NCBI GenBank assembly: GCA_051880495.1
Contig: JBJEOB010000051.1
Coordinates: 1,507-65,506, forward strand
DNA length: 64,000 nt
Direction of reading: 5' to 3'
DNA from: Lachnospiraceae bacterium
GTDB lineage: Bacteria > Bacillota > Clostridia > Lachnospirales > Lachnospiraceae
The notes below the pieces were generated by a model. The model saw only the letters and a list, made by a program, of their open reading frames with translations, ran no database searches and was not told the DNA's origin. A program made the position numbers and the translations under genes. Shown here piece after piece: positions 3,077 to 62,383 of this stretch. The stretch's first letter is position 1. Each line of letters starts with the position of its first letter.

Positions 3077-3627
3077 AAAACAATTCCCTCCTTCTCAACA
3101 TTTTTATAAAAAGGAAGTGTTGTTTTCCATTCCATTAATTCACGTTGTTCAATTAAAATAACAGATAGCGTAATGCCTAAATCCAGCTGGTAATCAACCA
3201 CAATATCTGTCATCCTGTCATATTGTTCTTCTGTTTGCTCAGCCGTTAATACTAATGCCATATCAACGTCTGACTCATCTGTCTCCTGGCCTCTGGCATA
3301 CGACCCGTACAGTACAACTTCTGCGATAGTTCCTGCATAGATTTCTCCAAATGTCTCACACATCTCGCATAATTTCTTTAGCATTTCAGGATGCTTATTG
3401 TTGAGCCTCACCCGCTGTCTCCAGTTTCGATACTCGCCACTTTTAACCCTTCTGTCCTCCGGATACTCAGTGCCCTTTGGTATAAGCCATTGACTGCCAA
3501 TTTTTTTGCCGTCCAGAGTTCCTTTTATCAGCATTCGTCTGATATTTCCCGGATCTTTACCGGTGACTTCTGCGTACTGAGATACTGTATAATACTCACC
3601 CATATCTTTCATCTCCCATCCAATCAT
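3061..3627 (-). CDS. Minimal nucleotidyltransferase (MNT) antitoxin-like protein with N-terminal excisionase/MerR-like HTH
   Basis: The NTase motif is VVLYGSYARGQETDESDVDMALVL (GSxxRG...DxD). The N-terminus YYTVSQYAEVTGKDPGNIRRMLIKGTLDGKKIGSQWLIP is HTH-like. The true start may be ATG 3612 or 3603 (GGGAG upstream). Confidence 0.75.
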   Translation of the reverse strand: MIGWEMKDMGEYYTVSQYAEVTGKDPGNIRRMLIKGTLDGKKIGSQWLIPKGTEYPEDRRVKSGEYRNWRQRVRLNNKHPEMLKKLCEMCETFGEIYAGTIAEVVLYGSYARGQETDESDVDMALVLTAEQTEEQYDRMTDIVVDYQLDLGITLSVILIEQRELMEWKTTLPFYKNVEKEGIVLWKSA

Positions 3628-3633
3628 ATATTA

Positions 3634-3647
3634 ACACGATATCGTGT
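3634..3647. promoter_or_regulatory. Perfect 14-bp palindrome ACACGATATCGTGT; candidate autoregulatory operator of the HTH-MNT/HEPN operon
   Basis: It was read directly from the sequence. It lies 7 nt upstream of the first ATG of the HTH-MNT gene, in the divergent intergenic region. Confidence 0.4.
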
Positions 3648-3763
3648 AAATGTCAATTCACACTTATCCTAATTCTGTTTGCCCATTACAAAGAATATTT
3701 ATTGTAGATTTTTATTCAAATATGATTTATAATAATGCTAATATGGAATTGGAGGAAAATAGT

Positions 3764-4351
3764 ATGAGTTTGTTGAATATTTTTAGAAAAAATCCGCCAA
3801 AACCGAATACTCCCCCAGCCAACACCTCTGCTGTTTATCCTAAGCACAGGGTTTCTCATACATTTGTTCATACCTACGGCATTTCACCGAAAGACCCTTC
3901 TATTTTTGTTGAGTATGAAAATGGAGAAGAAGTATCACAATTACGTTTTTCTATTTCCAAAAACGAACTGAAAATTTGCGATTTTTTAGCCGGAGGCGAC
4001 GATAAAGACTATCATCACGGAACTGAAATGATGATTGCTCTTCTAAAACATTTCAAGACCCCTTTTGTGAGAATTTATGGCGAACTCTCGCCGATTGATG
4101 CCTATAATATGAACTGGACCCGTTCCATTCCTTTTTACAGTGATTTACCGCGCCATGTGTTTTCACAGCTCGGTTTAAAATATGAATTTTATCTTTTTGA
4201 TGACAAAAATTTTGAGCATGATGTAACCGACATTCTCTCCATTGAAGAAGAACGTGATGCCAATATTGAGGCTTACCGGATCAGTCATCTTTATGACACA
4301 GAGGGAAATATCACAAATCGTTTCGGCTCTTTTCATTATATTTTGTCATAG
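3764..4351 (+). CDS. Hypothetical protein (195 aa)
   Basis: The frame is open, with GGAGG at 3751-3755 placed 8 nt before ATG 3764. I recognised no family. Confidence 0.55.
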   Translation: MSLLNIFRKNPPKPNTPPANTSAVYPKHRVSHTFVHTYGISPKDPSIFVEYENGEEVSQLRFSISKNELKICDFLAGGDDKDYHHGTEMMIALLKHFKTPFVRIYGELSPIDAYNMNWTRSIPFYSDLPRHVFSQLGLKYEFYLFDDKNFEHDVTDILSIEEERDANIEAYRISHLYDTEGNITNRFGSFHYILS

Positions 4352-4553
4352 GATTAGCTTACTGCTCAATCCCATTTTTTCAAATATTCTTTAATCATAA
4401 AAGCGCAAAAGTAAGGAAATGTAAATATATTATTTGCATAGCCAACATTGAAATCTCCCAGTTTTATACCATGCTGTATGTCACTATAATTCTCATTTGC
4501 AAAATGCAAAATTGATTCTGTTTTTCCAATCTGTTTCACCCCTTTTTCTTAGG

Positions 4554-4664
4554 TTATCACATTTTATGAGGGTATTTAATCATGATTATCACATTTTATG
4601 AGGATATTTAAGCATTATTATCACATTTTATGAGAATAATATTCGTACTCATAAAATAGTCACA
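4554..4664. repeat. Three direct copies of TTATCACATTTTATGAG at an exact 32-bp period, plus one inverted partial copy
   Basis: The copies are at 4554-4570, 4586-4602 and 4618-4634. Units 1 and 2 share about 27/32 nt. An inverted CTCATAAAATAGTCACA lies at 4648-4664, so copy 3 and the inverted copy form TTTATGAG-N13-CTCATAAA. Confidence 0.85.
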
Positions 4665-4669
4665 TTTAT

Positions 4670-5110
4670 TCATCGCAATACATTTGATCTGGAATAAATG
4701 TAAAACAATTCCTGTGTATATTTATAGCCCTTCTCCATTTGAGGAAAAGTAGCATCAAACTCTTCAAACCCGCTCTCATCCGGTTCATGAGCAGGACTCT
4801 CTACATATTTCCATATCTTACCTGAAAGCGCATTCTCGTCCAATACCTTCACCATCAGCGCAACAGGATAAACATCTTTTTCTAAGCACACATTGTATCG
4901 TTTACAATTCTTAAATCCATAGCATGCATAGTTCTCAGGATTGCCCCAAATCGCTACCGTGTCATATCCTAATTTCTTTGCCACCTCAAACGAATGAAAA
5001 AGTAGCTTTCTTCCATATCCTTTTCTCTGATAATCCGTATGTATTGTAAAAGGTCCAAAAGAAAGGATTTCTTTCTCGGTCCCGTCGTCAGCAATTAGCT
5101 TTGCTTTCAC
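4670..5110 (-). pseudogene. GNAT-family N-acetyltransferase (YhbS-like), apparently 5'-truncated
   Basis: The acetyl-CoA motif is HTDYQRKGYGRKLL. The homologous frame continues upstream (WIIKDGKIIGHIIY) but meets a TGA near 5190 with no ATG. About 45 N-terminal residues expected for this family are missing, and only a GTG start is available. Confidence 0.55.
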
Positions 5111-48531: not shown

Positions 48532-49515
48532 TTATAATAAATGTGCTCGCAATTCTTCGCCGCTTAAATCTGAAAGGTAAGCCGGTGCTATGTCAAATAC
48601 TGTCTTGCAGCCCGTCTGATTTTCGTTATTCATGCGATATACGGCTCTTGCATATGCCGCAATAACAGAACCGGTAAATTCAGGATTAGAATCAAGTGTA
48701 AGCTTATATTCCACTACATGTGTATGCTCATTGTTAAATCCTGTGACGCCCGTACGGATAACACTTCCGCCATGTGGCAGTCCGCTGTGGTTTTTCTTCA
48801 TTTCTTCTTCTGTAATGAAATGAACTGTTGTGTCATAATCAGCAAAATAATTCGGCATATTCTTAATTTCTGCCTCAATCCTTGCTTTATCAGCACCATC
48901 TTTTGCCACTACAAAACATTCTCTTATATGTTTTTCACGTGTTGTAAGTTCAGGCTGCTTTCCTTCTCTTACTGCCTGCATTGCTGCCTCTACGGGAATT
49001 GTATACTGTCTGCAGTCAAGAACACCCTCTATACGGCGTACGGCATCTGAATGACCCTGGCTTACGCCCTTGCCCCAGAACGTATAATCCTTTCCATCCG
49101 GCAAAATACAGTTTGCATATAATCTGTTAAGTGAAAACATTCCCGGATCCCATCCACATGAGATAACGCATGTCTTTCCGGCTGCTTTAGCTGCAGCATC
49201 TACATTTGCAAAATGCTCCGGAATACGTGCATGTGTATCAAAACTATCCACAACATTGTACATTGCTGCATATTTCGGTGTCTGCTGTGGGAGGTCTGTT
49301 GCACTTCCTCCGCATAAAATAAGAACATCTATTTTGTCCTGCATTTCACAAAGCGCATCCTCATGATAAACCTTTACGCCCGGAGTATTAACCTTAACCG
49401 TTGAAGGGTCTCTTCTCGTAAACACACCTGCCAACTCCATATCCTTATTTTTGGCAACAGCACATTCAACACCCTTACCAAGATTTCCATATCCAAAAAT
49501 ACCAATTCTAATCAT
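48532..49515 (-). CDS. ddh: meso-Diaminopimelate D-dehydrogenase
   Basis: MIRIGIFGYGNLGKGVE...GVFTRRDP is typical of Ddh. The start ATG 49515 follows AAAGGAAG. Confidence 0.85.
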   Translation of the reverse strand: MIRIGIFGYGNLGKGVECAVAKNKDMELAGVFTRRDPSTVKVNTPGVKVYHEDALCEMQDKIDVLILCGGSATDLPQQTPKYAAMYNVVDSFDTHARIPEHFANVDAAAKAAGKTCVISCGWDPGMFSLNRLYANCILPDGKDYTFWGKGVSQGHSDAVRRIEGVLDCRQYTIPVEAAMQAVREGKQPELTTREKHIRECFVVAKDGADKARIEAEIKNMPNYFADYDTTVHFITEEEMKKNHSGLPHGGSVIRTGVTGFNNEHTHVVEYKLTLDSNPEFTGSVIAAYARAVYRMNNENQTGCKTVFDIAPAYLSDLSGEELRAHLL

Positions 49516-49607
49516 CTGCTTAACTTCCTTTCGCAATTCATGCTATCTGCTTTATTTTATTAATAAAACAGAATAAATTATAAATCCAATTTTGCTCAAT
49601 GTAAATA

Positions 49608-50777
49608 TTATATCTGTTTTTCAATAAACGAAGCAGCTTCCTTCGCACCGCCGCATTTTCTAAAAGACTCCTGTATTTTAACGGCATTTTCCTTTATGGA
49701 CGCATTATCCAAAGCCTCACGGACAGCCTTTTTAATTTCGGATGTGCTTACATCCTTTAAGAAAATACCTGCGTTCAGTTCATTTACCCTGTTGGCTACG
49801 CCCTGCTGTTCCGGTGTCTGCGGAAATAATACAAGAGGCACGCCATAATACAAGGCTTCGCTTACGCTGTTCATGCCACAATGTGTGACAAATGCATCTG
49901 TATTCTGTAAAACAGCAATCTGGTCGACAGAATTCTTAACGATACAGTTTGACGGAATTTCTCCCAGACTTGAAATATCAGTATCAGCTCCAACCGATAT
50001 GATTACCCTGTACGCTTCATCCTTTACGGCATCAAAACATTTAGTATAAAAATCAGGATGATTGTTGTCAACTGTGCCAAGCGAAATGTATACGGTAGGC
50101 ATCTGTACCTCTTCAACAGCCTCCGTAACATCACGTACTACAGGGCCGACAAAATCGTAATTTTCTGAAAATGTTTCTGCAAACGGCTGAAACATCGGCG
50201 ATGTGTAAACAATGGTTTTTGTATCATTATCATTTGCAATAATGTCAAGAACACTTTTTACCTCATAGCCCTTTGCGCGAAGTTTTTTAAGGCTCTTACT
50301 GATTTTAGGCATGCTTTTAATAACCTGAAAAAGCCCCGGGCCGCCCGACTTCATTACTTTTGCAGAATACTGATTAAATGCAAATGTTGTCGTTGACGAA
50401 ACAAATGGAATCGAAAGCTTCTTTGCAATGAGCTTGCCCCAGAATGCCATTGAATCACTTACGATTACATCAGGTTTTAGTTCTTTCATTTCTTCAAGAA
50501 CGGCATCATCAAGTGCCAGTGTAAGCTTCACAATAAGCTCTGTGGAAAATGCAAGGTCCTTACCCAGCCTTGCTCCATCCTCCTTTGATAATCCTATCTG
50601 TGGGTCATATTGGTCACATGCGACGAACTTTGCCCCTGTGCTTTCTATTTTTTCTCTCATACTCTCATACGAATAATAATATACTTCATTACCACGTGAT
50701 ATAAGTTCACGTACAACACCCAGTGTCGGGTTGGTATGTCCGTGTGCCGGAATACAGAAAAATACTATTTTACCCAT
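49608..50777 (-). CDS. MGT-family (macrolide-type, GT1) UDP-glycosyltransferase
   Basis: The N-terminus is FFCIPAHGHTNPTLGVVREL. The UDPGT-type signature is THCGMNSVSEALYYGVPLVLFPQTPEQ. Confidence 0.8.
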   Translation of the reverse strand: MGKIVFFCIPAHGHTNPTLGVVRELISRGNEVYYYSYESMREKIESTGAKFVACDQYDPQIGLSKEDGARLGKDLAFSTELIVKLTLALDDAVLEEMKELKPDVIVSDSMAFWGKLIAKKLSIPFVSSTTTFAFNQYSAKVMKSGGPGLFQVIKSMPKISKSLKKLRAKGYEVKSVLDIIANDNDTKTIVYTSPMFQPFAETFSENYDFVGPVVRDVTEAVEEVQMPTVYISLGTVDNNHPDFYTKCFDAVKDEAYRVIISVGADTDISSLGEIPSNCIVKNSVDQIAVLQNTDAFVTHCGMNSVSEALYYGVPLVLFPQTPEQQGVANRVNELNAGIFLKDVSTSEIKKAVREALDNASIKENAVKIQESFRKCGGAKEAASFIEKQI

Positions 50778-52059: not shown

Positions 52060-52095
52060 TGCGGCGCCTTCAAAGACTAAAAAAGAGGCGCCGCA
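52060..52095. terminator. GC-rich hairpin between convergent genes
   Basis: TGCGGCGCCT-N16-AGGCGCCGCA forms a perfect 10-bp stem. The T-tracts on both sides are weak. Confidence 0.5.
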
Positions 52096-52134
52096 CTAAT
52101 TTCTTAATGCAACAGCCTCTTTTTATTATCTTTT

Positions 52135-52662
52135 TTAGTTAACTACTGATGAATTATATTCAATTGATGCAATGTTATCACCGTCTAAAATAAAGCAAAG
52201 CTTCATGCCATCCTTAACGTAAGCAATCTGTCCTGCTGTCTCTTCATACTTGTCACCATAAACTGCAATAACATCCGCCTTGGTCTTTGAAATATCAATT
52301 CCTTCTGCAGTCTTAACATTATCATCCTTTAAAATAATTGTTGCAATAAGATCCTTATCGCCATCAGGATATGTGTCGATTTCGTAGCTTGCATAGGTAT
52401 ATAACTTTGCAATACCCTGTGCCGCACAGCTTGGCTCCTCGAAATAGCTTACAGGGTCTCCAAGCTTTGAAACAACCGTGCTTGCATCCATGTCTACGCC
52501 AATTTGGATACCATTTACCTCAAATACATAACCCTTAACACTTTCCTGTGTATTCGGTGCTGATGTCTGTGAATTTGTCGACGTCTGCTTATCCGAACCA
52601 CAGCCGGCTAAAAGTGCCACACAAATCATTCCGGCTACAGCCAGACTTTTTCTCATTTTCAT
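52135..52662 (-). CDS. Lipoprotein of unknown function (last gene of the dlt-like operon)
   Basis: The lipobox is LLAGCGS and the RBS is AAAGGAGAG. It lies 17 nt downstream of the SGNH-like gene. Confidence 0.65.
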   Translation of the reverse strand: MKMRKSLAVAGMICVALLAGCGSDKQTSTNSQTSAPNTQESVKGYVFEVNGIQIGVDMDASTVVSKLGDPVSYFEEPSCAAQGIAKLYTYASYEIDTYPDGDKDLIATIILKDDNVKTAEGIDISKTKADVIAVYGDKYEETAGQIAYVKDGMKLCFILDGDNIASIEYNSSVVN

Positions 52663-52679
52663 AATATACTCTCCTTTAA

Positions 52680-53750
52680 CTATTTAATAACGGCTCCGTT
52701 TTTTTCGATAGATTCATACTGGGCAGCTATTTCCGCATCATATGCCTCACGCTTTTTAGCCCATTTAGCCGCAAGCTCTTCATCATTTCTTCTGTCAGTA
52801 ACATTACACTCAGTGGCGAGAATATTACCGAAATAATGTGCCATCTTCTCAGCACCTGAAAGATTCAGATGCAGACCTGCATCATAGGTGTCCGTACTAT
52901 AATCAAGTCCTATTTCATCTGTGCATTCAAGGAAATTATAATACTTAAGTCCATGTTCCTTCGCATATGAAACCATCTGTTCATCCCATTCATCATACCA
53001 TGCAGGGTATAGACTCGGTGCCTTGACCAACACTAATTCTACATCATTTGCCTTACACAATTCAACCATCTTATCAAGATAATAATATGAATTGTCGCCA
53101 AACGTATAATCTGCAAGGACCTTAGGCTCCGGAATATTTTCAACAGGAAGCACATCCACACGCATATAATAGCCGTTATGTGTTACTTTATCCCTTTTCC
53201 AGAAATATGTCAAATCCTCTTTAGAAAGTTCATTCCATCTTGAATGATATCTGAGCAGCGGAAATACATAATCAAGAAATTCCTCTTCCTCAGTCATGGA
53301 AGCCATGATGCTTCCTATTTTCGACGATGACCATTTCATGCCGTCTATCGTCATTCTGTTATATGTTTCCTTCTGCGGCTTGTCATATTTCATTGACAAC
53401 ACATTAAATACAATCACCTGTGGCTTTTCATATTTGAGTGTCTCTTCCATCAGATAATACGACTGCCAGATGAGCTGCTGTGCGCTTCCTCTTATGAAAC
53501 TGTTAATTCCATACTCCTCCCACAGCACAACAGGTGAAATATTCTCATAAAGTTCACAGTCGCCTACAAAAATCACGTCATGGTTCTTGTCTTCATCGTA
53601 ATATTCTGCAATCATGGCACCTTCTACGACGCCTGACATATATTTTGGCATCATAAGACGCTGCAGAAGATACAAAACGCCAACAATTATAAATACTGAA
53701 ATCAGGACTTTTAAGACCGTCTTCCACTTTTTTCCTTTATTTTCCACCAA
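52680..53750 (-). CDS. DltD-like / SGNH-type membrane-anchored acyl(aminoacyl)transferase-esterase
   Basis: An N-terminal TM anchor is present. The block I-like motif is FVGDCELYE (Cys where DltD has GSSE and SGNH has GDS). The block V-like motif is DAGLHLN. The gene sits after an MBOAT gene. Confidence 0.55.
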   Translation of the reverse strand: MVENKGKKWKTVLKVLISVFIIVGVLYLLQRLMMPKYMSGVVEGAMIAEYYDEDKNHDVIFVGDCELYENISPVVLWEEYGINSFIRGSAQQLIWQSYYLMEETLKYEKPQVIVFNVLSMKYDKPQKETYNRMTIDGMKWSSSKIGSIMASMTEEEEFLDYVFPLLRYHSRWNELSKEDLTYFWKRDKVTHNGYYMRVDVLPVENIPEPKVLADYTFGDNSYYYLDKMVELCKANDVELVLVKAPSLYPAWYDEWDEQMVSYAKEHGLKYYNFLECTDEIGLDYSTDTYDAGLHLNLSGAEKMAHYFGNILATECNVTDRRNDEELAAKWAKKREAYDAEIAAQYESIEKNGAVIK

Positions 53751-53761
53751 CTTACCTCTTT

Positions 53762-55354
53762 CTAAAACTGGTTATAAATAAACTGATTAGCATCATAACC
53801 AATTCCATAGCTTCCAAAAAGAATTACAAGAAGGAACAGGCCAAACCAGATACAAAAACGTAATGCATATGGCTTTGCAGCTATTTTCTCCCTGACACTG
53901 CCGGTTCTTTGTACAAGGCTGACTGTCAGAAGAATCAGAAATCCGACAAATACAATTACATAATCGGCAATACTAAGTCCAAGAGAAAGCAGTGTTCCCG
54001 AAAATAATTCTCCCACATTAAATGTGGTAAACATACTTCCTACCATTCGAAACGTTAACGGCACATCACGGTAACAGTCAAATGTTCGAAGACAGCTCAT
54101 AAGGAGAACTGTTCGTATTATCTGGAATGCCTTATACCATGTTTTCCCTGCCACGTTAAACTTTGCATGGAACTTATTATATAATGGTTCGCATTCCTGC
54201 GAAATCATAATTACTACATAGTTGGCAAGTCCCCATACTATAAAATTCCAGCTTGCTCCGTGCCAGATACCCGTTGCAAACCATACTGCAAAACATGACA
54301 GATAAATTGTAACACGCTTTCCAATCTGTTCACCAAGGTGTTTTCTGGAAAAACGGCTCAGCTTTAACATAGGCTGACATACCGAAATCGGATAAAAAAT
54401 ATAATCCGTAAACCAGCTTCCCATTGTAATATGCCAGCGGTTCCAGTATTCTTTGATATTTTTTGAAAAATACGGACGTATAAAGTTTTCCGTAACTTTT
54501 ATGCCCATAGTCTGTGCAATACCGATGGTTATATCAATACCGCCCGTGAAATCAGCATAAAGCTCCAATGCATAAAACAGCATACCGACAAGAACATATA
54601 CACCGCGATATGCTGCAGTATCATTTACAATGGCATTTACTGCCACGACAAGTCTGTCTGCAATTACAAGCTTCTTAAAGAATCCCCAGAGTATTCTCTG
54701 AAGACCGAATGAAACTGTCTTTTTGTCGAATGAATGTGGTTCATACAGAGACTTTGCCAAATCATCAAAACGGCTTATCGGTCCCTGAATCAGCTGCGGG
54801 AAGAATGATACAAAAAGCGCAAGCTTAAAAAAATTCTCCTCAGCGCGGTATTTCCCACGATAAACATCAATCGCATATCCCATTGACTGGAAGACATAGA
54901 ACGAAATACCCATCGGCAGCGCAATGTTTAAGAACGAAAGCTGCCTGCTGCTGTTAAACCACGAAAGCACCGTATTAATATTGTGAATAGTAAAATTGGT
55001 GTATTTTACTACTGCTAACATTCCAATGTTCAGAACAAGGCAAAGGACCAGAAGATGCCACTGCTTTTTCTTACCGATTTCCTTGTAAGCCTTACGTTCA
55101 TCCCTTGACATTTCTGCCTTATGCTCTTTGATATAATCATCCTGGGCATCCTTGGATTTCTGAATCATGCGTGTCAGCACATATGTGCTTATTGTCGTAA
55201 ATACAATATAAAAAAGATTGCCAAAGCCGCTTGCAAAATAGAAGATGTAACTTCCGACAAGCAATAACGGCCACTGAAATCTCTTAGGCACAATGTAGTA
55301 CAGAACGAGCATTGCAAAGAGAAACAATAAAAAAGTATACGATGTAAATAACAT
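53762..55354 (-). CDS. MBOAT-family membrane O-acyltransferase (DltB/AlgI-like)
   Basis: The protein is polytopic with the MBOAT His motif WNRWHITMGSWFTDYIFYP. At 530 aa it is longer than a classical DltB. Confidence 0.85.
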   Translation of the reverse strand: MLFTSYTFLLFLFAMLVLYYIVPKRFQWPLLLVGSYIFYFASGFGNLFYIVFTTISTYVLTRMIQKSKDAQDDYIKEHKAEMSRDERKAYKEIGKKKQWHLLVLCLVLNIGMLAVVKYTNFTIHNINTVLSWFNSSRQLSFLNIALPMGISFYVFQSMGYAIDVYRGKYRAEENFFKLALFVSFFPQLIQGPISRFDDLAKSLYEPHSFDKKTVSFGLQRILWGFFKKLVIADRLVVAVNAIVNDTAAYRGVYVLVGMLFYALELYADFTGGIDITIGIAQTMGIKVTENFIRPYFSKNIKEYWNRWHITMGSWFTDYIFYPISVCQPMLKLSRFSRKHLGEQIGKRVTIYLSCFAVWFATGIWHGASWNFIVWGLANYVVIMISQECEPLYNKFHAKFNVAGKTWYKAFQIIRTVLLMSCLRTFDCYRDVPLTFRMVGSMFTTFNVGELFSGTLLSLGLSIADYVIVFVGFLILLTVSLVQRTGSVREKIAAKPYALRFCIWFGLFLLVILFGSYGIGYDANQFIYNQF

Positions 55355-55356
55355 TT

Positions 55357-55599
55357 TTAATCCTCATCAATAAGACTCTGTACAAGATTGCATAAAGCAT
55401 CTACAGAGTTGAAATTTTCCGGGATAATCTTATCAGCAGAAACAACAATATCAAATTCTTCATTGATTTCAGATATAAGTGAAATAATATCAAATGAATC
55501 CAACACCTTGCTGTCCACAAGTGTATCACATGCTTCAAAATCCTCGTCAGGATGTAACTCACTCAAAATTTCTAATAATGTGCTCTTAATTTCTTCCAT
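55357..55599 (-). CDS. Carrier protein (DltC-like, 80 aa)
   Basis: The phosphopantetheine-attachment motif is VLDSFDIISLI. It overlaps the end of the adenylation gene by 14 nt. Confidence 0.8.
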   Translation of the reverse strand: MEEIKSTLLEILSELHPDEDFEACDTLVDSKVLDSFDIISLISEINEEFDIVVSADKIIPENFNSVDALCNLVQSLIDED

Positions 55600-57106
55600 T
55601 TTTCTTCATCTCCATATAATTATTTTTTAATTCAACACGGTTAATCTTGCCGTTTGCCGTAAATGGCATTTCCTTAAGCTGTTCAACATAATTAGGTATC
55701 ATATACCTCGGCAGTTTCTCCTTAAGGCATGAAACCAAAGACTTAACCTCTATGTCTCCAACATAATAAAGGACTATCTTTCCATTTTCATTATCATAAA
55801 TACATCCGCACAGCTTAACACCCTCAACCATATTTACATTGGCTTCAATTTCTCCAAGCTCAATACGGTGGCCCATGTGCTTAATCTGGTAATCCTTTCT
55901 TGAAACAAATACCAGTTCACCGTGCTCATTGTATTTGCCAATATCACCGGTGCGGTAGATAATTTCCGGATATGCCGTATTCAAAGGATTCTGTACAAAT
56001 ACATCCTTTGTTTTTTCCGGATTATTGTAATATCCAAGTGTTACCGAAGTACCACGGATACAGATTTCACCTTCATCTGCCGGTTCATTTTTGTCATTAA
56101 GAAGCAGAATTTCCGTATTCTTAAACGGTCTGCCAATCGGAATAGGCTCATTATCACCAAGCTCTCTCTCCACATGATAATAACAGCACATTCCGGTACC
56201 TTCCGTAGGTCCGTAAAGGTTTGTAAATGAAGCCTCCGGTAAGGTTTCCCTCCAGATTCGGAACTGCTTTATCGGAAATACTTCACTGCCAAATGCAATA
56301 GTTTTTAAATAAAGCGGCTTAACGGTCTTAAACGTGCCAAATGCCGAAATCATTGTGAGTGCTGAAACCACCCAGCAGATTGTGTTGACTTTGTGCTCAT
56401 TTAGGAATTCCACAAGCTTTACCGGGAACATGAACAGACTCTTTGGCACTATGTATGTCGTAGCTCCGAATTTTAATGTAGGATACAGCTCCTTTAAGCA
56501 GGCATCAAAGTACAATGGTGTCTGGTTAGCAAATACCGTGTTTTCATTGAAGCCCAGTGTATCCGACAACTGCTCTATATAATCTATTACCGAGCGGTGG
56601 CATGCTACAACACCCTTTGGCACGCCTGTTGAACCCGAGGTAAATACAATATATATCGGGTCAGTGTCAAGCGCCTTATCACGAATGTCCGAAAGCGCCT
56701 TGGTATTTTCCCCAAGTCCTGATATATCATCATAAAGACAGAGATTACACTTATAATTAAATGTTTCCGCCTTCTTAATTGTCTCTGAATCACATATAAT
56801 CCATTCAGCCTTACAGTTCTCAAGAATGAGATCTATTCGGCTCTGTGGCATTTCCTCATCGATTGGGACATAAAAACATCCCGCCGTAATAACACCAAAA
56901 AATGCCATAATTGTCTTTGGATGCTTATTCATAAATACAACAACAGGTTTTCTGTAACAATTATTTTGAGCAAGAAATGTTCCCACACTTCTGCTGTGTT
57001 CGTAAACCTGTTTAAACGTATATTCTTCTGCCTCATTTGCAAATGCAACCTTATCCGGAACCTTCTTAACGATTTCATCCAGATACGTCAAAACATTGTT
57101 CATCAT
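55586..57106 (-). CDS. Stand-alone amino-acid adenylation enzyme (DltA-like, ANL superfamily)
   Basis: Core motifs are IVFTSGSTGVPKG (A3), YFDACLKE (A4), NLYGPTEGT (A5), YRTGD (A8) and the terminal NGKINR (A10). Confidence 0.85.
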   Translation of the reverse strand: MMNNVLTYLDEIVKKVPDKVAFANEAEEYTFKQVYEHSRSVGTFLAQNNCYRKPVVVFMNKHPKTIMAFFGVITAGCFYVPIDEEMPQSRIDLILENCKAEWIICDSETIKKAETFNYKCNLCLYDDISGLGENTKALSDIRDKALDTDPIYIVFTSGSTGVPKGVVACHRSVIDYIEQLSDTLGFNENTVFANQTPLYFDACLKELYPTLKFGATTYIVPKSLFMFPVKLVEFLNEHKVNTICWVVSALTMISAFGTFKTVKPLYLKTIAFGSEVFPIKQFRIWRETLPEASFTNLYGPTEGTGMCCYYHVERELGDNEPIPIGRPFKNTEILLLNDKNEPADEGEICIRGTSVTLGYYNNPEKTKDVFVQNPLNTAYPEIIYRTGDIGKYNEHGELVFVSRKDYQIKHMGHRIELGEIEANVNMVEGVKLCGCIYDNENGKIVLYYVGDIEVKSLVSCLKEKLPRYMIPNYVEQLKEMPFTANGKINRVELKNNYMEMKKNGRN

Positions 57107-57124
57107 GACGCGTTATCTTCCTTT

Positions 57125-57841
57125 CTACTTTGTTATAAGCTGCTCATACTCTTTCTTCAATGTACCGCACTGCTCCACTGCACATTTTGCAAGAACCTGC
57201 ATTGCATCTAAGTAGCCTGCGCCTATTTTCTCATCTCTTCGAATCATTGATAATTCAGTACATCCGAGAATGATTACTTCGGCGCCCTTATTTTTCAGTT
57301 CCTCTGAAACTCTCTCAAAACGATCCATCTCCACGGGCTTTGTTGCCTTGACATTCTTATAAATAAGATGCATGACATCCTTTTGTCCGTTCTCCTCAGG
57401 CACAACAATCTTTATACCTGCATTCTGCATTGATTTCTGAAAAAGACCACTCTTTACCGTTCCGTCAGTTGCCATAAGTCCAACGGTTTTAACATTCATT
57501 TTCTTAAGATACAACGCGGTTTCCTCTATAATATTTATCACCGGAACAGGAATCTGTCCAGTCAGTTCGTCATAGAAATAATTGGCGGTAATACATGGTA
57601 TGGCAATGACCTCTGACCCGTTATCAGCAAGTTTTTTCCCAAGGTCAGCCATTGGTATGCCCGGGTTGGCATTACTCTTTCCCAGAATATAACTTGTTCT
57701 GTCCGGAATCCACGGACAGTTAAATATAATCATTTCGATATGCTCCTGATCTGTATCGGCCTGTGTCATCTCAATGACCATCTGCATAAAAAATGCTGTT
57801 GCCATCGGGCCTAAGCCACCGATTACTCCTAGTTTTTTCAT
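57125..57841 (-). CDS. Aspartate/glutamate racemase-family protein (aspartate-racemase-like)
   Basis: The N-terminus is MKKLGVIGGLGPMATAFF. Two catalytic Cys motifs are present (IPCITAN and LGCTELS). I take the start at ATG 57841 (GGAGTG upstream) because the ORF-track N-terminal extension overlaps the upstream gene. Confidence 0.8.
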   Translation of the reverse strand: MKKLGVIGGLGPMATAFFMQMVIEMTQADTDQEHIEMIIFNCPWIPDRTSYILGKSNANPGIPMADLGKKLADNGSEVIAIPCITANYFYDELTGQIPVPVINIIEETALYLKKMNVKTVGLMATDGTVKSGLFQKSMQNAGIKIVVPEENGQKDVMHLIYKNVKATKPVEMDRFERVSEELKNKGAEVIILGCTELSMIRRDEKIGAGYLDAMQVLAKCAVEQCGTLKKEYEQLITK

Positions 57842-57857
57842 ATCGTCACTCCATTCT

Positions 57858-59117
57858 TTACTGTATCTGCGGGTATTTTGATGCATCATAGTTGTGCGAG
57901 TCATTATTTTTCTTGGAATATTCCATAAGCTGCGCATCAGTCCAATAGAAGAAGGTTGTTCCATCCTTTCTTCTCGTCGTATCAAAATGATACCATCCAT
58001 CCCCCAGATTAATCAGATTCCAATAATGTCTGTACGTCGTCGGAATCCTTTCTATATCCATATTCTCAATTCCTGCCGCAGTAAGAAGCGCCTTTGCAGA
58101 TGATGCATAAACATAGCAGTCACCCTTATGCTCGATAAGTCCTCTGTATGCGCCCTTTACCCAGCTATCCTTGTCAGAACTGTCAACATATTTTATGTTG
58201 GTATGACACCAGTCATAAATCGCCTTGGCAACATCATACTGTGTAACAGCACCCGATTTTGCCTTTATCGATTCAACAAGCTTGCCCGCCTCACTCATAA
58301 CGTATTCTTCCGTTGCATTATCGGCAGAAGGCTGTTCTACATGAAGAACGGTTGATACTCTTGTCTCATTTCCCGCGCCGTCAACTGCAATATATGTGAT
58401 AGGATAGTCACCCGGTTCATTCAGGTTAACCGAACTGTTATCTACAGTAAGCTCTACATCAGTATCATAATTGTCCGTTACCGTTACATCCCTCTTGTAT
58501 GATACACTGGTTCCTGCCGGGATGGTTATTTCCTTTACACCGGTTATTTCCGGCGGAATAAGGTCTGTTACAACTTCAGCACTGGCAACCACCTTTGTCT
58601 TATTACCGCCTTCATCCGTAACTGTAAGCTTAATTTCCTTATGCCCGGTAGTCGACATGTCAGGAACTTCATCATATTCAACGGTTGTGTCCGTGGCATC
58701 AACTATGCTCTCAATCAGCTCTGACGCATCTTCCAGACCTTCATTTATAAATAATGTCGCATTCTTTGCCGTAACAACCGGAGCAACCGTATCCACAACA
58801 TGCAGAATGGATGTGTATTCTTTTCCTCCTACCGAAATAACAACATTATAATCAGCAACATGATTCATGCTTGTATTTTCATCAAGTCCTGAAATCAATT
58901 CAACATCTTCATAACTTTTTTTCAAAAAATCACTGACCGTCGGAAGCTCACTTCCTGCTTCTACCGTCATCTTTTTTTTCACCTTGGATGATGTCAGCAA
59001 AAATGTTATTCCCCAAATAATTCCTGTAAGAACCAGAATCAAAATTATCCAGTTCCTTATCACCCTTCGGCGTCTTCTGGCCCTTCTCGCCCTTTTTCTT
59101 CTTTCTACACTGTCCAT
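57858..59117 (-). CDS. Membrane-anchored protein with Ig-like repeats and a C-terminal transglutaminase-like cysteine peptidase domain
   Basis: An Arg-rich N-terminus and TM anchor are present. The C-terminal region GDCYVYASSAKALL...HYWNLI...WYHFDTT carries a Cys-His-Asp transglutaminase-core pattern. Confidence 0.7.
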   Translation of the reverse strand: MDSVERRKRARRARRRRRVIRNWIILILVLTGIIWGITFLLTSSKVKKKMTVEAGSELPTVSDFLKKSYEDVELISGLDENTSMNHVADYNVVISVGGKEYTSILHVVDTVAPVVTAKNATLFINEGLEDASELIESIVDATDTTVEYDEVPDMSTTGHKEIKLTVTDEGGNKTKVVASAEVVTDLIPPEITGVKEITIPAGTSVSYKRDVTVTDNYDTDVELTVDNSSVNLNEPGDYPITYIAVDGAGNETRVSTVLHVEQPSADNATEEYVMSEAGKLVESIKAKSGAVTQYDVAKAIYDWCHTNIKYVDSSDKDSWVKGAYRGLIEHKGDCYVYASSAKALLTAAGIENMDIERIPTTYRHYWNLINLGDGWYHFDTTRRKDGTTFFYWTDAQLMEYSKKNNDSHNYDASKYPQIQ

Positions 59118-59197
59118 TTATTATTCTCCCCTGTACAAATGCTCAGTTTTATACAATTTTATATTATATCATTCCACTGTTTTAATTGCAAATAGTA

Positions 59198-59872: not shown

Positions 59873-62062
59873 TTACAAATGCAATACCCTGTCCCTGATT
59901 TCCTGGGTTCTTCCCTGATTCCAGAACTGAGTTCCGATATAACCGCACGTTCTTCTCGCAACAAAAAGATTATTCTGGTCACGGTTACCGCAATTCGGGC
60001 ACTCCCACTGAAGTTTTCCTGCATCATCGGCTACAATCTTAATTTCGCCGTCAAAACCGCACTTCTCGCAGTAATCACTCTTAGTGTTTAATTCTGCGTA
60101 CAGAATATTTTCATAAATGTATTTCATTACTTCAAGAACTGCCTCAATGTTATTTTGAAGGTTAGGCACCTCAACATAACTGATTGCGCCGCCCGGAGAT
60201 AATTTCTGGAACTCGGATTCAAATTTTATCTTGCTGAATGCATCTATTTTTTCTGTCACATGAACATGATAGCTGTTAGTAATATAATTCTTATCCGTTA
60301 CACCCGGGATAATGCCAAATCTCTTCTGAAGGCACTTGGCAAATTTATATGTTGTTGATTCCATCGGTGTTCCGTACACTGAATAACTGATGTGCTCTGC
60401 TTCCTTCCACTGTGCACATTTATCATTAAGCTTCTGCATAACTGCAAGCGCAAATTCTTTTCCTTCAGGCGAAGTATGACTCTTTCCCAGCATTCGCACG
60501 CACATTTCGCATATGCCTACATAACCGAGCGATATTGTCGAATAACCGTCATACAAAAGCTTATCTATTTTTTCGCCTTTCTTAAGACGTGCCAGCGCAC
60601 CATGCTGCCAGAGGATAGGAGCGACATCCGAAGTCGTTCCGAGCAGTCTTTCGTGGCGGCATCTTAAAGCCCTGTGGCACAGCTCGAGTCTTTCCTCAAG
60701 TATCTCCCAGAACTTGTCCATATCACCATACGACGAACATGCAACATCAACCAGGTTAATCGTAACGACACCCTGATTAAATCTGCCATAGTATTTTCTC
60801 TTGCCATCCGGCATTCTCTGTCCGTCCTCAACCGTAAGAAATGAACGGCAGCCCATACACGGATATACATCACCTTTTTTAAGCTCACGCATCACTTTTG
60901 CAGAAATGTAGTCCGGAACCATGCGTTTTGCCGTACATTTTGCCGCAAGCTCAGTCAGATACCAGTATTTTGAATCAGGTGTGATATTATCCTCATCAAG
61001 GACATATATAAGTTTAGGGAACGCAGGCGTAATCCAGATACCCTTTTCATTTTTGACTCCCTTGGTTCTCTGAACAAGCACTTCCTCTATAATCATTGCA
61101 AGGTCATCCCTGGTCTGACCTTCCGGCACCTCATCAAGATACATAAACATCGTCACAAACGGTGCCTGTCCGTTACATGTCATTAGTGTTATAAGCTGAT
61201 ACTGAATCGTCTGTATTCCGCTCTTTACTTCTGCACGAAGCCTCTTTTCAGTTATCTTATCTATAATTGTATCATCGAGCGGTTCGCCACATTCTGTTCG
61301 CTCCTCAATTACCGAATTACGGATTTTCTGTCTGCTCACGTCCACAAACGGTGCCAGATGTGACAGCGTTATTGACTGTCCGCCATACTGGTTGCTTGCC
61401 ACCTGTGCAACTATCTGTGTTGTTACATTACATGCAGTAAAAAAACTATGTGGTTTATCAATCTGGGTCTCGCTGATTACCGTTCCGTTCTGAAGCATGT
61501 CTTCGAGGTCTACAAGATCGCAGTTATGCTCCTTCTGGGCAAAATAATCTGCATCATGAAAATGAATAAGTCCCTGTTCATGTGCTTCTACAATGTCAGC
61601 AGGAAGAAGCATCCTTTTTGTAAGATCCTTGCTTACCTCACCGGCCATGTAATCTCTCTGTGTCGAGTTGATGGCAGGATTCTTATTGGAATTTTCCTGA
61701 TTTACTTCTTCATTAATATTGTCAATAAGTGCAAGAATACCATTGTCTGTTGTGTTTGACTTACGGGCAAGTTCTCTCTTATAGCGGTAACGAACATACT
61801 TCTGGGCAACCTCATACCCACGCATCTCCATGATACCGGTTTCAACCATATCCTGAATATCTTCAACATGTACGGCGTGAGACATTGCTTCAATCTGTTT
61901 TGCAACATTTTCTGAAATTGCTTTAATCTGATACTCATTCATCCTGTGAATGTTGTCAACCTCATTATTAGCCGCTTCAATGGCATTGCTAATCTTTGAA
62001 AGGTCAAAAAGAACTTCTTCTCCATTTCTCTTAATAACATTTGTTTTAACTTCTGTATTCAT
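59873..62062 (-). CDS. nrdD: Anaerobic ribonucleoside-triphosphate reductase (class III)
   Basis: An N-terminal ATP-cone is present. The C-terminal Zn ribbon is CEKCG...CPNCG and the glycyl-radical motif is RRTCGYIG. Confidence 0.95.
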   Translation of the reverse strand: MNTEVKTNVIKRNGEEVLFDLSKISNAIEAANNEVDNIHRMNEYQIKAISENVAKQIEAMSHAVHVEDIQDMVETGIMEMRGYEVAQKYVRYRYKRELARKSNTTDNGILALIDNINEEVNQENSNKNPAINSTQRDYMAGEVSKDLTKRMLLPADIVEAHEQGLIHFHDADYFAQKEHNCDLVDLEDMLQNGTVISETQIDKPHSFFTACNVTTQIVAQVASNQYGGQSITLSHLAPFVDVSRQKIRNSVIEERTECGEPLDDTIIDKITEKRLRAEVKSGIQTIQYQLITLMTCNGQAPFVTMFMYLDEVPEGQTRDDLAMIIEEVLVQRTKGVKNEKGIWITPAFPKLIYVLDEDNITPDSKYWYLTELAAKCTAKRMVPDYISAKVMRELKKGDVYPCMGCRSFLTVEDGQRMPDGKRKYYGRFNQGVVTINLVDVACSSYGDMDKFWEILEERLELCHRALRCRHERLLGTTSDVAPILWQHGALARLKKGEKIDKLLYDGYSTISLGYVGICEMCVRMLGKSHTSPEGKEFALAVMQKLNDKCAQWKEAEHISYSVYGTPMESTTYKFAKCLQKRFGIIPGVTDKNYITNSYHVHVTEKIDAFSKIKFESEFQKLSPGGAISYVEVPNLQNNIEAVLEVMKYIYENILYAELNTKSDYCEKCGFDGEIKIVADDAGKLQWECPNCGNRDQNNLFVARRTCGYIGTQFWNQGRTQEIRDRVLHL

Positions 62063-62179: not shown

Positions 62180-62383
62180 AAAAAACAACATGGGGTGTCA
62201 AAAGCTCATTATCAAAGACCTGAATGGCAAAATGCACAAATAAAGTTGTTTAAATGACTTTTGCGCTGTGGAGATGAGATGCTCATCGGAACGATTAGCG
62301 CAACGGAATGCAAACAACTTTATTTGCGCATTTTGCCAGGTTATGAAGTTAAAATAAGCTTTTGACACCCCATGTTGTTTTTT
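62180..62383 (-). repeat. Palindromic repeat element, copy B (core 62229-62334) with a perfect 27-bp outer stem
   Basis: The outer arms (62180-62206 and 62357-62383) are perfectly complementary, in the form A6-CAACATGGGGTGTCAAAAGCT. The second stem is 62225-62251 with 62312-62338. The inner stems are TTGCGCT/AGCGCAA and GATGAG/CTCATC. Confidence 0.85.

Follow-up and report, generated by a model that had tools for sequence, protein, structure and literature searches.

The Dlt system of Bacillota attaches D-Ala to teichoic acids, and in the textbook account this is how Gram-positive bacteria adjust their surface charge, their resistance to cationic peptides and their recognition by the host. 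The system (DltX-DltA-DltB-DltC-DltD) has been described as the sole pathway in which a carrier protein feeds a membrane-bound O-acyltransferase (MBOAT) paired with an SGNH-fold protein. Here, we describe a seven-gene operon from a Lachnospiraceae bacterium, located at positions 59117-52135 on the minus strand of a 64,000-nt stretch of contig JBJEOB010000051.1 (the window, to which all coordinates refer). In gene order, the operon codes for a transglutaminase-like protein, a racemase, a stand-alone adenylation (A) enzyme, a carrier protein, an MBOAT, an SGNH-fold protein and a lipoprotein, all on the minus strand. We propose that it performs a carrier-dependent, MBOAT-SGNH-type aminoacylation of an extracytoplasmic acceptor in the envelope, separately from Dlt and with a different amino acid, and we give this interpretation a probability of roughly 0.55. 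If true, the module would be the second pathway of its kind, and the residue that it attaches to the cell envelope is probably D-Asp or a related acidic D-amino acid.

DltB does not contain the FxYxxF hexapeptide known as the acyl shuttle, and relies instead on the separate microprotein DltX (Anderson, Schultz et al., PMC12148441). The tyrosine of this motif is loaded with D-Ala in the case of DltX and with acetate in that of PatA, and the chemistry of transfer from histidine to the shuttle tyrosine has been shown for both DltB/DltX and PatA (PMC12148441). In the acetyl-CoA-dependent MBOATs, such as PatA, AlgI and others, the motif is located on two extra helices, and there is no similar carrier protein (PMC12148441). 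The operon in the window combines features of both classes. Similar to Dlt, it contains a stand-alone A enzyme and a small carrier, an MBOAT with a DltB-homologous core and a catalytic histidine, the tyrosine shuttle motif, an SGNH-fold partner with a transmembrane (TM) anchor and, as the predicted donor, a D-amino acid made by a racemase. It differs from Dlt in the gene order, in the specificity pocket of the A enzyme (DLMTMCTVAK in Dlt, DAKCAGLGMK in the window), and in the SGNH partner, which has no sequence similarity to DltD and contains a cysteine instead of a serine. Furthermore, DltX is a separate protein in Dlt, beside a DltB of about 400 amino acids, whereas the DltX motif is fused to the MBOAT in the window, after two extra helices, and the operon has an aspartate-type racemase, a transglutaminase-like enzyme and a lipoprotein of its own, as well as, at other loci, sometimes an AsnB-type enzyme. 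With PatA/PatB, which O-acetylate peptidoglycan, with AlgI/AlgJ/AlgX, which act on alginate, and with the acetylation systems for cellulose or secondary cell wall polymer (SCWP) it shares an MBOAT of about 500 amino acids with two extra C-terminal helices and a terminal FxYxxF, together with a separate extracytoplasmic SGNH-fold protein as the putative transferase. However, those systems use an acyl-CoA donor and have no carrier (PMC12148441), whereas the window has an A enzyme, a carrier and a racemase, and the SGNH partner again differs in having a cysteine rather than a serine. Since the operon encodes its own adenylation enzyme, carrier and racemase, what it transfers should be an aminoacyl group.

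Two further systems resemble parts of the operon. AlmEFG of Vibrio cholerae reportedly adds glycine to lipid A by means of a pair of the DltA/DltC type, and so sets a precedent for retuning such a pair away from D-Ala in envelope modification; it is said to differ from the operon in that AlmG belongs to a lipid A acyltransferase family rather than to the MBOAT-SGNH systems, in its glycine substrate and lipid A acceptor, and in having no racemase. Pairs of an aspartate racemase and a D-aspartate ligase are reported from Enterococcus faecium (Racfm-Aslfm) and Lactococcus lactis (RacD-AslA). As in the window, the gene for an aspartate-type racemase is said to be located beside that of a wall enzyme that uses D-Asp, and an AsnB-family enzyme to amidate the D-Asp, but ligation in those species reportedly takes place in the cytoplasm, by an ATP-grasp enzyme acting on a peptidoglycan precursor, whereas the A enzyme, carrier and MBOAT of the window imply transfer across the membrane. 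The sequence-only reading had called the locus a rearranged dlt operon. The gene types for aminoacylation are indeed present, but the label is too weak, since the MBOAT is of the PatA/AlgI type, the SGNH-fold protein is not a homolog of DltD by sequence, and the A enzyme is equidistant from DltA and the nonribosomal peptide synthetases (NRPSs). No paper describing the seven-gene cluster was found in our literature searches, and in public annotations the homologs carry generic names only: “amino acid adenylation domain-containing protein”, “SGNH/GDSL hydrolase family protein” or “hypothetical protein”.

Adenylation enzyme, racemase and the predicted amino acid

Conservation was assessed in the 80 best relatives of the A protein (68-85% identity), as identified in a scan of one genome per species. 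The proteins of the window were searched against these 80 loci by tblastn, and all open reading frames (ORFs) of the loci were also clustered; the counts for the racemase refer to the 78 loci that extend far enough, and those for the transglutaminase-like protein to 73 loci. The seven genes are contiguous and in the same order as in the window in most of the loci. The clustering recovered the same recurring ORF families, with the A enzyme in 79 of the 80 loci, the racemase in 74, the transglutaminase-like protein in 72, the MBOAT in 69, the SGNH-fold protein in 67 and the lipoprotein in 57, and the commonest family among the other neighbors occurred in 13. The module is self-contained and conserved amid changing surroundings, and since long ORFs are conserved as a block in 80 loci, chance is not a concern.

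The A enzyme (gene 3; 506 amino acids; 55586-57106, minus strand) reaches 327 bits with the generic adenylation model TIGR01733, above the cut-off of 317, and falls below the equivalog cut-offs for DltA, scoring 287.9 against 559.85 for TIGR01734 and 295 against 476 for PRK04813. Compared to proteins in PDB, it scores about equally (~193-196 bits) to DltA (~195), GrsA (194.5) and one of the domains of LgrA (193). Since the DltA cut-off is missed by half and the distances to DltA, GrsA and LgrA are equal, gene 3 codes for a stand-alone A enzyme that is not an ortholog of DltA.

The specificity pocket provides the most direct view of the substrate. The A4 motif, FDACLKE, can be aligned with no gaps to GrsA, DltA and the two domains of LgrA, and Asp201, Ala202 and Lys205 (codon 56492-56494) correspond to positions 235, 236 and 239. 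The strings used for comparison by the sequence-only reading, FDASVWE for GrsA (PDB 1AMU, 234-240) and FDLSVMD for B. subtilis DltA (3E7W, 195-201), agree with the PDB sequences. The full code, DAKCAGLGMK (D201, A202, K205, C244, A271, G273, L297, G305, M306 and K487), was read from ungapped HMMER alignments to the A1 and A2 domains of LgrA, which were anchored on the FDxS, GGE and NxYGPTE motifs (IAFGSE against VITGGD/ILACGE, and hence GrsA ITAGS; NLYGPTEGTGM against NIYGPTEATIY; NTICWVVS against THINFVPS). The same procedure applied to B. subtilis DltA gave DLMTMCTVAK, with a cysteine at position 301 that equals Cys269 of B. cereus DltA, as checked by numbering, and which we take to be the residue that excludes L-Ala. 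An automatic MAFFT alignment gave the code DAKCIFLMCK; it was rejected, as it introduced single-residue gaps beside the counterpart of GGE and beside TE in the A5 motif, and as position 301 in DltA became Phe instead of Cys269.

All eight variable positions of the code differ from DltA, including a glycine at position 301 in place of the cysteine. Lys205, at position 239, corresponds to Trp239 in GrsA and to a methionine in DltA, and is invariant in all 81 A sequences. Nine of the ten code positions are invariant in the 81 sequences, among them the glycine at position 301 (81/81), and the remaining position is an alanine in 78; across the family as a whole, 38% of the columns are invariant. 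The suggestions that a lysine occupies position 239 and that the pocket is unlike that of DltA were thus both upheld by the alignments. Since Asp235 and Lys517 are kept, the substrate is expected to be an alpha-amino acid, and according to the alignment the pocket is roomy, with Ala236, Ala299, Gly301 and Gly330 and the lysine at its floor.

The racemase (gene 2; 238 amino acids; 57125-57841, minus strand) matches the Pfam family Asp_Glu_race (E 6e-43) and passes the aspartate racemase model TIGR00035 (asp_race) with 227 bits against a cut-off of 93. Its closest solved relative is the aspartate racemase of P. horikoshii (1JFL), with 41% identity and E 7.5e-52, compared to about 1e-9 to 1e-10 for glutamate racemases and 1e-6 for the Asp/Glu racemase 5HQT in the same search of PDB. 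The protein is predicted from these matches to be a two-Cys amino-acid racemase of the aspartate-racemase subfamily, independent of pyridoxal phosphate. The predicted catalytic residues Cys83 (codon 57593-57595) and Cys194 (codon 57260-57262) are invariant in 77 of 77 racemases, as are Arg48 and Lys165. The gene is located directly 5' of the A gene, on the same strand and within 500 nt, in 74 of the 78 loci, and somewhere in the locus in 76. The proposed link between the racemase and the cluster is borne out by this pattern, given that the flanking genes are not conserved. A dedicated racemase would be sensible only if the D-amino acid has no other source in the cell. We therefore favor Asp over Glu, because of the family of the racemase and because peptidoglycan synthesis already supplies both D-Ala and D-Glu.

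The gene content of other clusters is also informative about the side chain. At 11 of the 80 loci (L038, at 3213-5048 on the plus strand, and L011, L023, L025, L026, L034, L043, L046, L060, L069 and L074), the cluster includes an embedded gene for a glutamine-hydrolysing asparagine synthase of the AsnB type (TIGR01536, 452 bits against a cut-off of 267). Most of these loci are rearranged into the order carrier, MBOAT, SGNH-fold protein, AsnB, transglutaminase-like protein, racemase, A enzyme and lipoprotein, with gaps of 17-45 nt. No copy of an AsnB-type gene was found in the window. AsnB-family enzymes adenylate and amidate carboxylates, and AsnH is said to amidate the D-Asp cross-bridge of Lactococcus lactis. 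Because an AsnB-type enzyme is embedded in these clusters, the transferred residue would be expected to have a free carboxylate in its side chain, and the enzyme points, by analogy, to such a side chain independently of the pocket and the racemase.

Carrier protein, MBOAT and the outward-facing proteins

The carrier protein (gene 4; 80 amino acids; 55357-55599, minus strand) is encoded by a gene that overlaps the 3' end of the A gene by 14 nt. It shows a weak match to PP-binding (E 1e-5), and also matches the DltC and ACP models weakly, missing the equivalog cut-off for DltC. The predicted phosphopantetheine attachment site, Ser35 (codon 55495-55497) in the motif LDSFDI, is invariant in 75 of 75 carriers.

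The MBOAT (gene 5; 530 amino acids; 53762-55354, minus strand; Pfam MBOAT) scores 146 bits against an equivalog cut-off of 375 for DltB, and is homologous to DltB only over the core at residues 148-386 (6BUG, E 8e-23). Beyond this core, the hydropathy profile contains two extra hydrophobic helices, at residues 450-485 and 494-520. The protein ends in NQFIYNQF, and its last six residues, FIYNQF (53765-53782), correspond to the FxYxxF motif. The predicted catalytic His308, in the conserved NRWH (codon 54431-54433), and Tyr527 of the terminal motif are invariant in 72 of 72 homologs, and the pair of added hydrophobic helices and the terminal FIYNQF are likewise invariant. The fused C-terminal motif is new relative to the sequence-only reading. 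A separate DltX-like microprotein was also considered and rejected, as none of the small ORFs in the window has the motif at its end. Because this MBOAT with its fused shuttle is encoded beside an A enzyme and a carrier protein, the system is a hybrid of the two described classes, in which donor chemistry of the Dlt type would be combined with an MBOAT of the PatA/AlgI type.

The remaining three proteins, the transglutaminase-like, SGNH-fold and lipoprotein, are all predicted to face outwards, because of their N-terminal TM anchors and the lipobox. The 356-amino-acid protein encoded by gene 6 (52680-53750, minus strand) had been described as DltD-like. Neither Pfam nor NCBIfam gave a match to DltD, and a profile search of the PDB sequences returned chance hits only. 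The AlphaFold2 model, with a predicted local distance difference test (pLDDT) score of 81, has GDSL/SGNH hydrolases as its top matches in Foldseek, TesA among them, while the structures of DltD rank 20th and below (6PFX is 20th, with E 3.6e-3). The protein is thus assigned to SGNH by its predicted fold and not to the DltD family by its sequence. An N-terminal TM helix, in the same topology as in DltD, is present in the hydropathy profile. Of the original description, the SGNH fold and the N-terminal anchor stand, but a sequence kinship to DltD or to solved SGNH proteins does not. In the homologs, Gly63, Asp64 and Cys65 of the GDCE motif are invariant (67/67), as are Asp290 and His294 at the block-V position. 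In the model, Cys65 (codon 53556-53558) is placed where the helix after strand 1 begins, the canonical position of the nucleophile in SGNH proteins, in good agreement with the suggestion that a cysteine is the putative nucleophile. In a precomputed annotation, the homologs P0121, P0127 and others are assigned to PF27429; a local Pfam scan, with a copy that does not contain this family, gave a sub-threshold match to Lipase_GDSL_2 only.

The transglutaminase-like protein (gene 1; 419 amino acids; 57858-59117, minus strand) is a predicted membrane-anchored surface protein with a TM helix at residues 18-46, as indicated by hydropathy, Bact_surface_Ig-like domains and a match to the Pfam family Transglut_core (E 1.6e-10). 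A sequence search of PDB with this protein found nothing. The putative triad of Cys334, His364 and Asp379 is invariant in 66 of 66 homologs, and since only 7% of the columns in the alignment are invariant, the protein is predicted to be an active enzyme rather than a scaffold. Its gene is located at most 1.5 kb upstream of the A gene in 69 of the 73 loci. The homologs are often longer than the protein in the window, with a median of 546 and up to 721 amino acids, and contain extra Ig-like segments. Several loci (L013, L014, L015, L022, L025, L038 and others) have such a longer protein or a second, weaker transglutaminase-like match about 1.5-2.5 kb upstream of the A gene.

The lipoprotein (gene 7; 175 amino acids; 52135-52662, minus strand) has the lipobox LLAGC, with Cys21 as the lipobox cysteine, and a conserved PSC motif. 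It was identified in 61 of the 80 loci at a query coverage of at least 80%, and is located beside the A gene in the rearranged clusters. Its AlphaFold2 model has a pLDDT of 84, but no match in Foldseek was better than E 0.01, the best being to 9J9W and to YfeY of E. coli.

Proposed pathway and alternative explanations

According to the pathway that we propose, the racemase would make D-Asp from L-Asp in the cytoplasm. The A enzyme would adenylate the D-amino acid and load it onto the phosphopantetheine at Ser35 of the carrier, in a pocket that keeps Asp235 for the alpha-amino group and has a lysine at position 239 and small residues at positions 236, 299, 301 and 330. The carrier would then dock on the MBOAT, where His308 may move the aminoacyl group to the enzyme's own shuttle, Tyr527, at the outer face, as its motif and architecture suggest. 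From there, the group could pass to Cys65 of the SGNH-fold protein as a thioester, and be handed over to a hydroxyl or an amine of an envelope polymer, which might be a teichoic acid, another glycopolymer or peptidoglycan. More speculatively, the transglutaminase-like enzyme and the lipoprotein could be obligate extracellular accessories, with a role in acceptor-specific transfer or in editing, comparable to DltE of Lactiplantibacillus. In the sub-clade with AsnB, the enzyme would amidate the carboxylate of the side chain, which would convert a zwitterionic D-Asp tag into a cationic tag of the D-Asn type.

The sequence-only reading had proposed that an envelope polymer may be esterified with D-Asp, D-Glu or another D-amino acid other than alanine. 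The linkage of the racemase, Lys239, the difference in the pocket and Cys65 all hold, but the identity of the amino acid, its D configuration at the A enzyme, the ester bond, every step of the transfer and the acceptor are matters that we infer. We consider it likely that the operon encodes a Dlt-like aminoacylation system distinct from D-alanylation, and fairly probable that its substrate is an acidic D-amino acid; the proposal that this is D-Asp specifically is tentative, and we place it a little short of even odds.

Several observations weigh against the interpretation. The pocket on its own slightly favors Glu over Asp: a D-A-K start is presumably that of one Glu code (DAKDLGVVDK), with DLTKVGHIGK as the Asp code, although the string for Glu could not be confirmed in the literature, and past this start DAKCAGLGMK matches no code known to us. 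Furthermore, with Gly301 the mechanism known for the preference of DltA for the D-isomer is absent, which leaves selection of the D-form without an explanation. The racemase also narrowly passes the CuyB model for cysteate racemase (204.6 against 190), and the roles in side-chain binding that we take Arg48 and Lys164 to have found no confirmation in a literature search. Three clusters (L001, L019 and L081) have no adjacent racemase, and yet their pocket is unchanged. In the SGNH-fold protein, the spacing between the aspartic acid and the histidine is DxxxH and not the usual DxxH, and a cysteine nucleophile is unusual in this fold, its catalytic role being predicted from the model. Finally, no teichoic-acid genes linked to the module were found among the neighbors at the 80 loci or in the flanks of the window.

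One alternative is a system with the same architecture and mechanism that transfers not D-Asp but D-Glu, or else a different acidic D-amino acid, for instance D-cysteate. The D-A-K start would then be that of a Glu code, and the lysine at the floor of the roomy pocket, with Ala236, Ala299, Gly301 and Gly330, would suit a longer side chain. R. intestinalis appears to have no murI, according to comparative genomics (PMC7478625), and racemases of the Asp/Glu family could thus supply D-Glu in this group. However, the best solved relative of the racemase, by far, is a true aspartate racemase, and D-Glu is normally supplied by peptidoglycan synthesis, in which case a racemase in the operon would be superfluous. 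The score above the CuyB cut-off is what speaks for D-cysteate, but the module contains neither CuyA nor sulfonate genes at the 80 loci. Taken together, a substrate of this kind in place of D-Asp seems unlikely.

Another explanation is that the product is a stable amide and not an O-ester of a teichoic acid or glycopolymer, such that the cysteine-bound thioester of the SGNH-fold protein, the transglutaminase-like enzyme, or both, would acylate an amine, which could belong to a peptidoglycan stem peptide, to a surface protein or to the head group of a lipid. Amines are acylated more readily by thioesters, and enzymes of the transglutaminase fold catalyze acyl transfer to amines, or hydrolysis. 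The replacement of serine by cysteine is invariant in the SGNH-fold protein, the transglutaminase-like enzyme with its invariant Cys-His-Asp triad is both the most tightly linked accessory and the product of the first gene of the operon, and the missing linkage to teichoic-acid genes would also fit. On the other hand, all characterized MBOAT-SGNH pairs in bacteria O-acylate their substrates (PMC12148441). The transglutaminase-like protein may just as well act as a hydrolase or an editor in the manner of DltE, or serve some other purpose in the wall. We consider an amide product rather improbable. A more specific version, in which D-Asp or D-Asn would pass from the carrier to the MBOAT tyrosine, on to the SGNH cysteine as a thioester, and by way of the transglutaminase-like enzyme to an amine of peptidoglycan or surface proteins outside the cytoplasm, is marginally less probable still. 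If true, it would represent the first N-acylating MBOAT-SGNH system and also the first such system with a cysteine SGNH enzyme, as well as a second, ATP-grasp-independent way of bringing D-Asp into the wall of dominant gut commensals.

It is very improbable that the locus is an ordinary D-alanylation operon in a Lachnospiraceae form, with the racemase serving the general supply of D-amino acids: the operon does have an A enzyme, a small carrier, an MBOAT and an SGNH-fold protein with a membrane anchor, the four functional types of dltABCD, and its A enzyme reaches 288-295 bits with the models for DltA and has “LYP” after the A4 motif as in DltA, but the equivalog cut-offs for DltA, DltB and DltC are missed widely, the models for DltD are unmatched, none of the eight variable pocket positions agrees with DltA and its D-Ala-selecting cysteine is now a glycine, the racemase is of the aspartate type rather than an alanine racemase, an AsnB-type amidotransferase, as in 11 of the clusters, would be pointless for alanine, and there is no gene for DltX, the shuttle motif being fused to the MBOAT.

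If the aminoacylation with D-Asp that we propose is correct, the tag would be zwitterionic and not cationic, and the AsnB sub-clade could switch it to a cationic amide. This would be a new surface chemistry with a bearing on the sensitivity to antimicrobial peptides of the host, on recognition by phages and antibodies, and on the pools of D-amino acids in the gut. The module also offers natural variants for the study of the acyl-tyrosine shuttle, in the form of an SGNH fold whose putative nucleophile is a cysteine and of a fused shuttle that would be served by an aminoacyl donor.

Boundaries, distribution and surroundings of the module

The ORF listing of the window contains six tightly packed ORFs on the minus strand between 52135 and 57841, at the coordinates given by the sequence-only reading, with a gap of 18 nt between the genes for the racemase and the A enzyme, and the four motifs that it had pointed out (IPCITAN, LGCTELS, FDACLKE and GDCE) are all present in the translated genes. 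The ORF of the racemase is open in frame up to 58000. A start at 57841 (MKKLGVIGG) is backed by a gene call made independently on a metagenomic contig that is identical, and agrees with the median length of 238 amino acids among the homologs. A consensus scan identified a promoter-like site and a terminator-like hairpin that flank the seven genes on either side, both as pattern matches only. The promoter-like site (59163-59192, minus strand; TTTGCA / TTGCAA followed by the extended -10 TGATATAAT) is located within the 80-nt gap 5' of the transglutaminase-like gene, the ATG of which is preceded by the ribosome-binding site GGGGAG. The terminator-like hairpin, with its T-run (52089-52114, minus strand), is located 21 nt past the stop codon of the lipoprotein gene. 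The transglutaminase-like gene, which had been suggested as a possible member of the unit, is counted into it because of its co-conservation and because of the promoter-like site ahead of it. An Rfam scan of the operon and its leader identified no T-box or riboswitch.

Relatives of the A protein were identified in at least 589 species-representative genomes. The best 80 genomes are nearly all labelled Lachnospiraceae, and include Roseburia, Agathobacter, Acetatifactor, Lachnobacterium, rumen isolates and metagenome-assembled genomes (MAGs). The module is thus found in hundreds of species of Lachnospiraceae, a family that is dominant in the mammalian gut, with Roseburia, Agathobacter, Acetatifactor and rumen lineages among the carriers, and since cultured carriers exist the hypothesis is directly testable. 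The cluster at locus L081 is more divergent; its A enzyme is 64% identical and has the same pocket, no racemase is adjacent, and a 160-amino-acid AAA_18/kinase-like gene (L081:8077-8559) is inserted between the genes for the SGNH-fold protein and the lipoprotein. A search of representative genomes with the A protein was uninformative about sister clades, as the 150 matches listed were all giant multi-module NRPSs; stand-alone relatives are swamped in such a search, because the scores of the domains in multi-module NRPSs sum up. A horizontally acquired island was considered but rejected, given that the G+C content equals that of the flanks and that the module is vertically widespread. In a tblastn search against plasmids, the best match to the A protein, on a replicon of Paenibacillus cellulosilyticus, was an unrelated A/ACP/KASIII cluster without an MBOAT.

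The genes that flank the operon in the window have housekeeping functions, and include TcdA-like, diaminopimelate dehydrogenase, MGT-family glycosyltransferase, DegV, HAD phosphatase and NrdD. The genes for diaminopimelate dehydrogenase (48532-49536; TIGR01921, 430 bits) and the macrolide-family (MGT) glycosyltransferase (49608-50777) are located a few kb downstream of the operon; neither is conserved beside the module in other species, and both are taken as unrelated to it. On the other side, a palindromic element of about 115 nt (62224-62339) is located upstream of the gene for the anaerobic ribonucleotide reductase, nrdD (59873-62062, minus strand). It matches the Rfam family mir-1255 on both strands, with 40 and 35 bits, which is below the gathering score, and probably represents a long hairpin or an inverted repeat rather than a miRNA.

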